From Octopus vulgaris (lineage: Eukaryota), in contig OX597815.1 in NCBI GenBank assembly GCA_951406725.2, forward strand, positions 214,954,001 through 215,018,000: a DNA stretch of 64,000 nt, written 5' to 3'. Each line of letters begins with the position of its first letter. Within the stretch, counting starts at the first letter, position 1. The notes below the pieces were generated by a model, which worked only from the letters and a program-made list of their open reading frames with translations, ran no database searches and was not told the DNA's origin. Positions 8,598 to 60,703 of the stretch are shown here, piece after piece. Position numbers and translations under genes: made by a program.

Positions 8598-8827
8598 TGA
8601 TAAAAATGGTAAGACACCAAAAGAATGAAAGAGACCTCGATATTATGCAAATAGAGGAATTTGTTTATAAATGTAATATGTGACAATTATTCAATAGCCA
8701 AGATAAAACTCCGAGTTTCAGATGCCAAGGATGGCCGGATAACTGAAGAGATGGCGGCATGGATTTCCACCTCGGCATCCGAAACTCAGAGTTTTATCAT
8801 GGCTACCAAATAATTGTCACATATTAC

Positions 8828-8834
<7 letters not shown>
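8598..8834. mobile_element. Fold-back element (Penelope-like terminus) in a (TA)n tract
   Basis: Inverted arms 8666-8730 and 8770-8834 plus an unpaired tail at about 8598-8665; (TA)n on both sides; contains a hammerhead motif. Confidence 0.75.
8738..8798 (+). ncRNA. Type I hammerhead ribozyme motif
   Basis: GAUAA-CUGAAGA(8743-8749)-stem II GAUG..CAUC-GAAA(8781-8784)-CUC.A.GAG-UU-UUAUC; stem I GAUAA/UUAUC pairs perfectly; predicted cleavage after U8793 (GUU). Confidence 0.75.
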
Positions 8835-8882
<48 letters not shown>

Positions 8883-9258
8883 AGAAATTAATATGTTCAG
8901 TGCACGACAATTTTTCTGTTCAGGTTTCAGCTGTTATTGATGATCATATTATGTATGTATGCACACACACACACGTGTGTGTGTGTATATGTGAAGTACA
9001 TGACTTAGTGGTTAGGGTACTGCACTCATGATCATAAGATTGTGGTTTCAGTTCCTGGATTGGACAATGTGGTGTGTTCTTGAACAACAACACTTAATTT
9101 CTTATTGCTCCTGTGCTAGAAATGAGTATTCCTGCAACAGGACAGTGTCCTGTCCAGGTAGGCAATACATACACCACAGAATCTGAGAAACCAGCCTTAT
9201 AAGTATATGGCCCTAGAAGGATCTTTTATCCTTTTGTCATATGATATATATATATATA

Positions 9259-9713
9259 TTATATTAAATTAGAGATAAAACCACTATTAGGCAAATCAAA
9301 CAATGAAAAACTTAAGCCAATACATAAAATTAATTAATTTATATTATTTTAAATATATATCAAAATTATTAAAAGTTTAATAAAAGATAATGGGTAAAAC
9401 ACTAAACCTCGCTAAGATAAATATTTCAATCACCTGAAGATTGACTGTAACCATAACTCGAATTAATACGAATTGGACAGCCATGAAACGATCGTAGTGT
9501 TTTACTCATTATCTTTTATTAAACTTTTAATAATTTTGATATATATTTAAAATAATATAAATTAATTAATTTTATGTATTGGCTTAAGTTTTTCATTGTT
9601 TGATTTGCCTAATAGTGGTTTTATCTCTAATTTAATATAATATAATATTTTACTATAAAATTGAATTCAATCCTAAATCTGATTTTTCCCTGTAAGTTTG
9701 GATTTATTCCCTA

Positions 9714-9720
<7 letters not shown>
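9259..9720 (+). mobile_element. Fold-back element (Penelope-like terminus) with hammerhead in the loop
   Basis: Near-perfect 146-bp arms at 9259-9404 and 9495-9640, about 80-nt 3' tail, (TA)n on both sides; same family at 59901-60603. Confidence 0.85.
9431..9499 (+). ncRNA. Minimal type I hammerhead ribozyme motif
   Basis: CAC-CUGAAGA(9434-9440)-UUGACUGU..ACAGCCAU-GAAA(9485-9488)-CGAUCG-UA-GUG; palindromic stem III ACGAUCGU; predicted cleavage after A9496 (GUA). Confidence 0.75.
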
Positions 9721-9767
<47 letters not shown>

Positions 9768-9837
9768 CACACACATGTATGTATATTTGTGTATGTATGT
9801 GTGTGTGTGTGTATACACACGCATATATATATATATA

Positions 9838-10175
9838 TATTTGAAAGAGGAAAAGAATGACTTCACTGATAGTTCTATCGATTTAATTTTTTAATAATAT
9901 AATTCTACAGTTTGGTTTGTAGATCTGCTAAGTTCTTAGTTAACTTTGGTGGGGAGATTTTTTAAAGATTCTTCGATAACTTTTCTGGAAAACTTTTTGC
10001 ATTCATTGGTGGTGATTGTTGATCCAACGGAAGTTAACAAAGAACTAAGCAGATCTACAAACCAAACTGTAAAATTATATTATTAAAAAATTAAATTGAT
10101 AGAACTACTAGTGAAGCCATTCTTTTCCTCTTTCAAATATACGTAACTGTACCAAGGATCTCACACATTTTCCAA
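9838..10175. repeat. Fold-back element, about 105-bp arms plus short 3' tail
   Basis: Arms at about 9838-9946 and 10031-10140; tail acgtaactgtaccaaggatctcacacattttcca; (TA)n flanks; no hammerhead core seen. Confidence 0.8.
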
Positions 10176-43227: not shown

Positions 43228-43271
<44 letters not shown>

Positions 43272-43295
43272 TTCACAGTATAAATATATAAAATA

Positions 43296-43470
43296 TAAAT
43301 TAGAGAAAAGAACCACTATTATGCAATTCAAACAATGGTAGACATAAACCAAATCATAAATAAAAGAATAAAATATATTTTATAACACATAACTAGATCA
43401 CAAATAGTATAAAAATGAATAATCAATATATAATAATTTTAAAAAACTATGTACGTTTCATGGCTATAAT
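43296..43470 (-). mobile_element. Diverged relative of the 9259 fold-back family (single arm)
   Basis: aaattagagaaaagaaccactattatgcaattcaaacaatg resembles 9266-9305; minus strand agccatgaaacgtacatagt resembles 9479-9498. Confidence 0.65.
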
Positions 43471-43525
43471 TAAATTTGAATAACGATTAAATTTAAATTT
43501 AATCAAAAATCAGTTCAATTAAAAA

Positions 43526-59900: not shown

Positions 59901-60088
59901 ATATATTAAATTAGAGATAAAACCACTATTAGGCAAATCAAACAGTGAAAATCATAAACCAATACATAGAAATAAAATTAATTAATAAAAAATATATAAA
60001 ATATAAAATTCAAAATTTTAAATATTTAAATTGAAGTTAAAATTTTAAAAATTATTTAAATTAATGATTTATACTTATTAATTTTTAA

Positions 60089-60120
<32 letters not shown>

Positions 60121-60315
60121 TTTTTTTTAAATATATATATATAACTATCAAAAAGTATTAAAAGTTTAATATAAGATAAAGAATAAAACTCTTTATCTTA
60201 TATTAAACTTTTAATACTTTTTGATAGTTATATATATATTTAAAAAAAATTTTTTTAATTTAAAAAATAAAATAAAATAAAAATAAAAAAATAAATAATA
60301 ATAATAATAATAATA

Positions 60316-60349
<34 letters not shown>

Positions 60350-60603
60350 TTAAAAATTTATAAGTGTAAATTATTAATTTAAATAATATTTTAAATTTTA
60401 ACTTTAATTTAAATATTTTAAATTTTGAATTTTATTTTTTATTAATTAATTTTATTTCTATGTATTGATTTATGATTTTCACTGTTTGATTTGCCTAATT
60501 GTGGTTTTATCTCTAATTTAATATATATATATTTATACTATAAAATTAGATTTAATCCTAAATCTAATTTTTCTCTGTAAGTTTGGATTTACTCCCTAAT
60601 ATT
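59901..60603 (+). mobile_element. Fold-back element of the 9259 family, nearly loopless
   Basis: Arms at about 59901-60189 and 60190-60530; same outer arm boundary and same 3' tail (actataaaatt...ctgtaagtttggattt..ccctaat) as the 9259 copy. Confidence 0.85.
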
Positions 60604-60703
60604 ATTATTATATATATACATATATATACTTACACAGATTCATATATATATACACACATATATATTTCTATATACATATATCTATTTTTCTATTTCTCTC
60701 TCC

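Follow-up and report, generated by a model that had tools for sequence, protein, structure and literature searches.

The element, the ribozyme, the inverted arm and the tail of the insertion described here are all features already known from Penelope-like elements (PLEs). The insertion lies in a 64,000-nucleotide (nt) stretch of the Octopus vulgaris genome (contig OX597815.1, positions 214,954,001 to 215,018,000 of the forward strand), which as a whole is called the window. Its closest described relatives are the Hydra-clade elements with a C-terminal endonuclease (EN+) of Craig et al. 2021 (PMC8557442); statements on this and the other articles cited refer to the accessible parts of each. The Hydra-clade elements share with the octopus family a DKT motif, a CxCX5C linker, the lack of a CCHH motif, and CxxC and CxH motifs near the C-terminus, as well as a hammerhead ribozyme in the pseudo-long terminal repeat (pLTR), a (TA)n target, an adjacent inverted 5′-truncated copy and an optional tail, which is about 70 nt in the octopus family versus 30–40 bp for the PLEs of that study. 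The accessible text calls the function of the hammerhead unclear, and no mapping of copy ends to the cut was found in it.

The Anolis Poseidon element PAc (Frangieh et al. 2024, PMC11167929) also resembles the octopus family, in having two reverse transcriptase (RT) start sites that define the tail, priming on both strands, an AT-rich target and a hammerhead in the leader region. Uncut RNA is the dominant substrate of PAc and no RNA ends were reported at the cut, whereas a minority of the genomic ends lie at the cut in the octopus family; moreover, the open reading frame (ORF) of PAc starts inside the ribozyme, whereas the octopus ATG is 283 nt past the cut. The minimal hammerheads of metazoan PLEs (Cervera and de la Pena 2014, PMC4209133; review PMC6765202) have the same type I core and very short palindromic stem III. 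They have been proposed to act as dimers, and are described as having low activity in vitro and no in vivo evidence; unlike theirs, stem II is long (44 nt) in the octopus family. Finally, the HDV-like (hepatitis delta virus-like) ribozyme of R2 (Eickbush et al. 2013, PMC3774820) provides a precedent in which the cut sets the template's 5′ end and the 5′ junctions vary through chance microhomology. R2 differs in ribozyme and element class, and its cut frees the RNA from a ribosomal RNA co-transcript, whereas the octopus cut falls within the leader of the element itself, with only a minority of copies marked by it.

We report here that the 5′ ends of octopus copies fall, family-wide, far more often at the predicted hammerhead cut than in the bases just upstream. 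As judged from these DNA ends, part of the template RNA probably self-cleaved in vivo before it was reverse transcribed.

Copy ends at the predicted cut

The hammerhead core is as the first-pass annotation had described it, with CAC at 9431–9433, CUGAAGA at 9434–9440, GAAA at 9485–9488 and a predicted cut after 9496, that is, between A9496 and G9497. It is of type I, having the CUGANGA / GAAA / UH core and three stems. Stem III is palindromic, and stem II (9441–9484) has a predicted folding energy of -6.8 kcal/mol (z -2.0) and shows covariation in the form of a compensatory change between subfamilies. Rfam at gathering thresholds gave no match in the window, hammerheads included. Element positions are given below as the window coordinate minus 9404, with the cut product beginning at 93.

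The same annotation had suggested plotting the inner breakpoint of the inverted arm across all copies of the family, reasoning that a sharp peak at the cut would support reverse transcription from self-cleaved RNA and that a uniform spread would speak against it. Copies were therefore sought genome-wide with a conserved core just downstream of the cut, the preceding bases being chosen to exclude intact copies. For subfamily A1, all 42 matches were fetched and 41 kept; for subfamily A2, 71 of 75 were fetched and 64 kept, the losses being seven T-run indels (four judged from the printed match only), three internal rearrangements and one unclear case. This gave 105 curated copies from 117 matches in subfamily A (A1 and A2). 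Subfamily B, whose downstream sequence is different, gave 17 matches, all fetched, of which 16 were kept.

The apparent ends in subfamily A numbered 3, 1, 0, 4, 18 and 6 at positions 87 to 92, and 22, 18, 2, 8, 7 and 16 at positions 93 to 98. In subfamily B, six ends were at 93, four at 91 and one each at 87, 89, 90, 94, 95 and 96. Taken together, the three subfamilies have 75 ends within 2 nt of the cut versus 11 in the four bases upstream. The same asymmetry is found among junctions labelled by script as inverted-arm joins (27 versus 6; p 3e-4 under a sequence-aware uniform null), and the peak is not specific to inverted arms, as it also occurs in one-armed copies joined to genomic flank. 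Older copies that were later split were considered as a source of the ends at 91–94 and rejected, as the fetched flank of 73 of 76 such ends lacks a same-strand upstream ribozyme half. Complementarity to stem I was not used at any junction in these sets.

Since chance matches shift apparent ends, the null was built by simulating joins with the real flanks. A uniform process would place 51% of the ends between 87 and 94 at 91–94, and the observed numbers are 64 of 72 for subfamily A (p 1e-11) and, under the same null, 11 of 14 for subfamily B (p 0.04). A step-plus-spike model fits best at 93, the first base after the cut, with a log-likelihood of 148, compared with 136 at 91, 132 at 92 and 115 at 95–96. 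Position 93 remains best when a microhomology term is fitted (150 versus 136) and when the seven ends flanked by (TG)n are dropped (129 versus 122). The double peak at 91 and 93, with its dip at 92, is accounted for because a true end at 93 beside TA repeats gives that very pattern; about one-fifth of the simulated joins with a true end at 93 gave an apparent end at 91. Hence the breakpoints of the family peak at the cut and drop upstream of it, and a uniform spread fits worse (about 115 versus 148).

Subfamily A contains the core 907 times, and 64 of these 907 segments (about 7%, before correction for the filter) end at 91–94; the fitted spike amounts to some 34–39 ends. The rate of ending per nt is 1.76% at 91–94, 0.25% at 87–90, 0.39% at 29–90 and at most 0.36% at 179–190. 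For the upstream rates, a sample with a longer core was used (the first 100 of its 300 matches), as an upstream control at 75–84 (29 matches, with a 23/6 strand skew) may be incomplete. These 100 segments show a sharp 5′ limit at -11, with 51 of them ending no more than 40 nt away from it, and 18 continue into the intron or a different upstream sequence. The limit fits an initiator consensus and is likely the transcription start. In a second sample, made up of 94 of the first 100 among 2220 exact matches to a 22-nt piece further 3′, the A segments ending per segment at risk were 21/47 at 91–126, 4/51 at 127–165 and 3/26 at 32–90. The pile trailing behind the cut has the same width as that behind the start site; if the downstream pile to 35 nt (21/47) were counted too, up to about 40% of copies could derive from cut RNA.

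Paired arms and the window copy

In the fetched loci, 82 of 89 head-to-head pairs, a few of which are chance neighbours, combine a short arm with a tailed one. Of the 82, 26 have the short arm extending further 5′ and 36 the tailed arm, the remaining 20 being alike or past the reference. Fold-back of one complementary DNA (cDNA) as the general source of inverted arms is thereby rejected, because it cannot give a short arm that extends further 5′ than the tailed arm. The regular pairing fits two separately primed cDNAs and supports two-site priming within a single insertion event, which matches the two RT start sites and two-strand priming of the Anolis element in vitro (PMC11167929). Whether the two arm ends of an insertion are correlated was considered and given no weight, since the samples were selected differently and include some false pairs.

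The window insertion is a short head-to-head pair of this kind, probably formed by two cDNAs of a spliced Hydra-clade PLE in (TA)n. Its arms, 9255–9404 and 9495–9644, are 150 nt long, 99% complementary with one mismatch and 90 nt apart, the outermost few bases being (TA)n. Thus, the reported match of the mirror arm to the plus-strand arm from 9495 onward, no more than 2 nt from the predicted cut, holds. The exact base at which the arm ends is another matter. Because the CTA at 9402–9404 fits the mirror arm and exon 1 alike, the inner end may lie anywhere in 9495–9498 (positions 91–94); this interval contains the cut at 9497, and the microhomology makes the window copy, taken alone, ambiguous between a cut and an uncut template. 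The idea of the first-pass annotation, that the inverted copy was reverse transcribed from self-cleaved RNA, consequently finds its support in the peak of the family, which is shared by inverted and one-armed copies, and not in this copy itself.

Origin of the peak

We propose that the element's protein would nick both strands of the (TA)n target and that one cDNA would be primed at each of two internal RNA sites, by likeness to what has been described for the Anolis element in vitro (PMC11167929). Transcripts from an internal promoter would mostly be used uncut. A fraction of the RNA would self-cleave, probably as dimers or with the help of protein, and the uncapped product would keep both RT start sites. 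Each cDNA would then run to the 5′ end of its RNA, be it the transcription start (uncut RNA, most copies) or the ribozyme cut at 93 (a minority), and the cDNA ends would join each other or the target by chance microhomology, often with a loss of up to about 35 nt; such joining parallels the proposal made for R2 (PMC3774820). In the window insertion, the tailed arm would derive from RNA left uncut, with cut RNA as the probable source of the short arm, so that two RNA molecules would be represented in one insertion; for the short arm, the balance leans moderately towards cut RNA. It is a more tentative suggestion, to which we give somewhat less than an even chance, that cleavage by the hammerhead takes place in the germline and yields templates of a second, uncapped class.

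Several observations weigh against self-cleavage as the source of the peak. The spike is a minority, since 92 of the 100 longer-core segments pass position 90 with the ribozyme uncut. In the stretch 104–114, immediately downstream, ends are more numerous (308 matches) than at the cut, and a predicted hairpin at 106–137 or TA microhomology could be the source of those ends; because of this number, and because the hairpin offers another cause, the broad downstream pile is taken as suggestive only. Real ends were in the last instance told apart from indel variants by eye, since the "internal" label set by the script was not strict enough. In Anolis, the ribozyme was dispensable in vitro, and RNA-seq gave no reads starting or stopping at the cut, according to the accessible text of PMC11167929. 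Contigs from four octopus runs presumed to be RNA had no pile of starts or ends, which weighs on neither side, as such contigs would not reveal one. Furthermore, a second hammerhead-bearing repeat family, present in the window as a head-to-head insertion with a short and a tailed arm (8608–8830; core near 8743–8749), shows no wall, with 1 of 20 ends at its predicted cut (30 of 296 matches fetched).

For this second family, 100 of the 296 matches were listed, and the 20 real ends among the 30 fetched were recognised by eye. Its other ends are two at one base upstream of the cut, four in the two bases downstream, ten at 3–6 nt upstream and three folded at the palindrome. The family is more diverged, also has a palindromic stem III and carries a GUU triplet; GUU is a weak hammerhead triplet. 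Its lack of a wall indicates that a palindromic ribozyme is not enough for the method to produce one, and likewise that the effect lacks generality. Yet another family, which shares the palindromic stem III and differs in stem I, is present in three fetched loci (L167, L306 and L312).

If not cleavage, the peak could reflect stalling of the reverse transcriptase at a folded, dimerised or protein-bound ribozyme of uncut RNA, the stop falling at 93 by coincidence. Two copies are predicted to co-fold by pairing through the stem III palindrome at positions 84–91 (-25.6 kcal/mol), the last base pair in the window copy's centroid fold is at 92, and a small excess of ends (11/29) occurs at 79, the base of stem II. 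The dimer duplex would end at 91, and a stall 1–2 nt short of it would look much like a cut, a possibility that we disfavour. Walls at 92 or 95–97, where the duplex and stem I would have their edges, fit much worse; the predicted monomer folds have no helix edge at 92/93 common to the subfamilies, A copies being typically paired to about 99 and B folds differing; and the second family has no wall in spite of its palindrome. Stalling is thus unlikely, albeit the strongest competitor for the peak as a whole. It is less probable still that the junctions simply favour the words TA, GT and TGT at 91–95, which match (TA)n, (TG)n and AT-rich partner arms. Such a preference would suit the 7 of 22 A ends at 93 that adjoin (TG)n, the ends at 91 and 94 that fit TA microhomology, and the heavy use of the AT-rich 104–114. 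However, a uniform model with microhomology predicts some 20 ends at 87 and 5 at 93, where 3 and 22 were observed (log-likelihood 115 versus 150), T or G rather than TA stands before the B ends at 93, and the more TA-like region 127–165 has few ends.

A different question is whether the peak is real and the window arm nevertheless arose by DNA fold-back or by chance truncation through the 3-nt CTA, which would leave the family result unaffected. We regard this as a serious possibility, held at about one chance in three. Use of all three shared bases requires two bases that cut RNA cannot supply, and fold-back allows a tailed arm that is the longer one, as in the window and in the 36 pairs noted above. 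On the other side stand the share of simulated true ends at 93 that appear at 91 and the rarity of background ends upstream of the cut.

The element, its locus and wider meaning

The genome (2.8 Gb) holds 1497 first-look candidates for this stretch. One copy, L407, contains upstream of the same leader an open frame of 745 codons with a YRDD motif and a VVY...YIG endonuclease motif; it has 41 homologues at E<=1e-10, 40 of them 32–39% identical. Pfam and Protein Data Bank (PDB) sequence searches with the long ORF gave no match, one C-terminal piece giving a sub-threshold CpXC match, and for this reason the RT and GIY-YIG assignments are based on motifs read from the alignment. By these motifs, the family is an EN+ PLE with a single ORF encoding an RT together with a GIY-YIG-type endonuclease at the C-terminus, and the pLTR, inverted arrangement and optional tail are present as well. 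All the Hydra-clade motifs named above were found on alignment against the clade definition in PMC8557442, CCHH being absent, and by this match to the published description the element is assigned to the Hydra clade. An N-terminal RWK motif is present or nearly so in six aligned homologues, the natural copies being truncated or deleted there. Membership in Neptune/Nematis was rejected, given that neither the CX2-5CxxC linker nor the CCHH motif was found, as was a retrozyme of the non-LTR type, given that the copies are single or head-to-head, not head-to-tail tandems, and part of an ORF-bearing element.

In copy L409, the sequence continues from the tail into the ATG, and it is the distance of this ATG from the cut that places the ribozyme in the leader. 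A leader intron is retained in some copies, such as L046, and is spliced out in the window copy, whose template was therefore spliced RNA. Copy L117 has the spliced junction together with sequence upstream of the likely transcription start, which implies a read-through spliced transcript. In L040, L055 and L103, a third upstream sequence is joined to the same exon 2 start, possibly through a different intron or a template jump. In L360, L192 and L307, sequence like the 5′ end of the ORF is joined head-to-tail onto leader positions 94, 169 and 82, respectively, suggesting template jumps from copies primed further downstream.

Table 1. Parts of the head-to-head insertion, in window coordinates.
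Feature	Position	Strand	Remark
(TA)n target, left side	9245..9259		sequence; the family inserts into (TA)n
Inverted arm, short 3′ end without tail	9255..9404	-	inner end at ribozyme cut ±2 nt, equivalent to 9495-9498
CTA microhomology, 3 nt, joining both arms	9402..9404		common to exon 1 of longer copies
Forward arm with uncut ribozyme: spliced 5′ leader, tailed long 3′ end	9402..9718	+	
Exon 1/exon 2 junction	9420..9421	+	898-nt GT-AG intron here in copy L046
Type I hammerhead, palindromic stem III, predicted cut 9496/9497	9431..9499	+	
Optional tail, ~70 nt, between the family's two fixed 3′ ends	9649..9718	+	
(TA)n target, right side	9719..9757		sequence

Elsewhere in the window, an older two-armed copy of the same family occupies 59905–60608, its arms ending at about 95 and 100, just past the cut. 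A diverged minus-strand relative (43270–43490, 73% identity) includes the 3′ half of the ribozyme, and another inverted pair (9836–10141), with 118-nt arms that are 92% complementary and 70 nt apart, adjoins (TA)n. In the fetched locus L047, at about 1400–1415, a segment has a 3′ end that coincides with the cut and is followed directly by (TA)n, like a copy of the 5′ cleavage product; it is 1 of 141 ribozyme halves.

No published mapping of genomic PLE copy ends to the hammerhead cut was found in a literature search from which subscription journals were mostly missing and which did not include bioRxiv supplements. The in vivo cutting and the purpose of the minimal hammerheads of animal PLEs are stated to be open in the accessible parts of PMC4209133, PMC8557442 and PMC11167929. 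The nucleotide-precise excess of ends at the cut points to cleavage in vivo that feeds retrotransposition, in the manner of the R2 ribozyme, and the mapping of copy ends is a test that needs genome assemblies alone. If the more tentative suggestion of germline cleavage is true, the breakpoint spectra of genomic copies would reveal, from genomes alone, the PLE ribozymes that are active in vivo.
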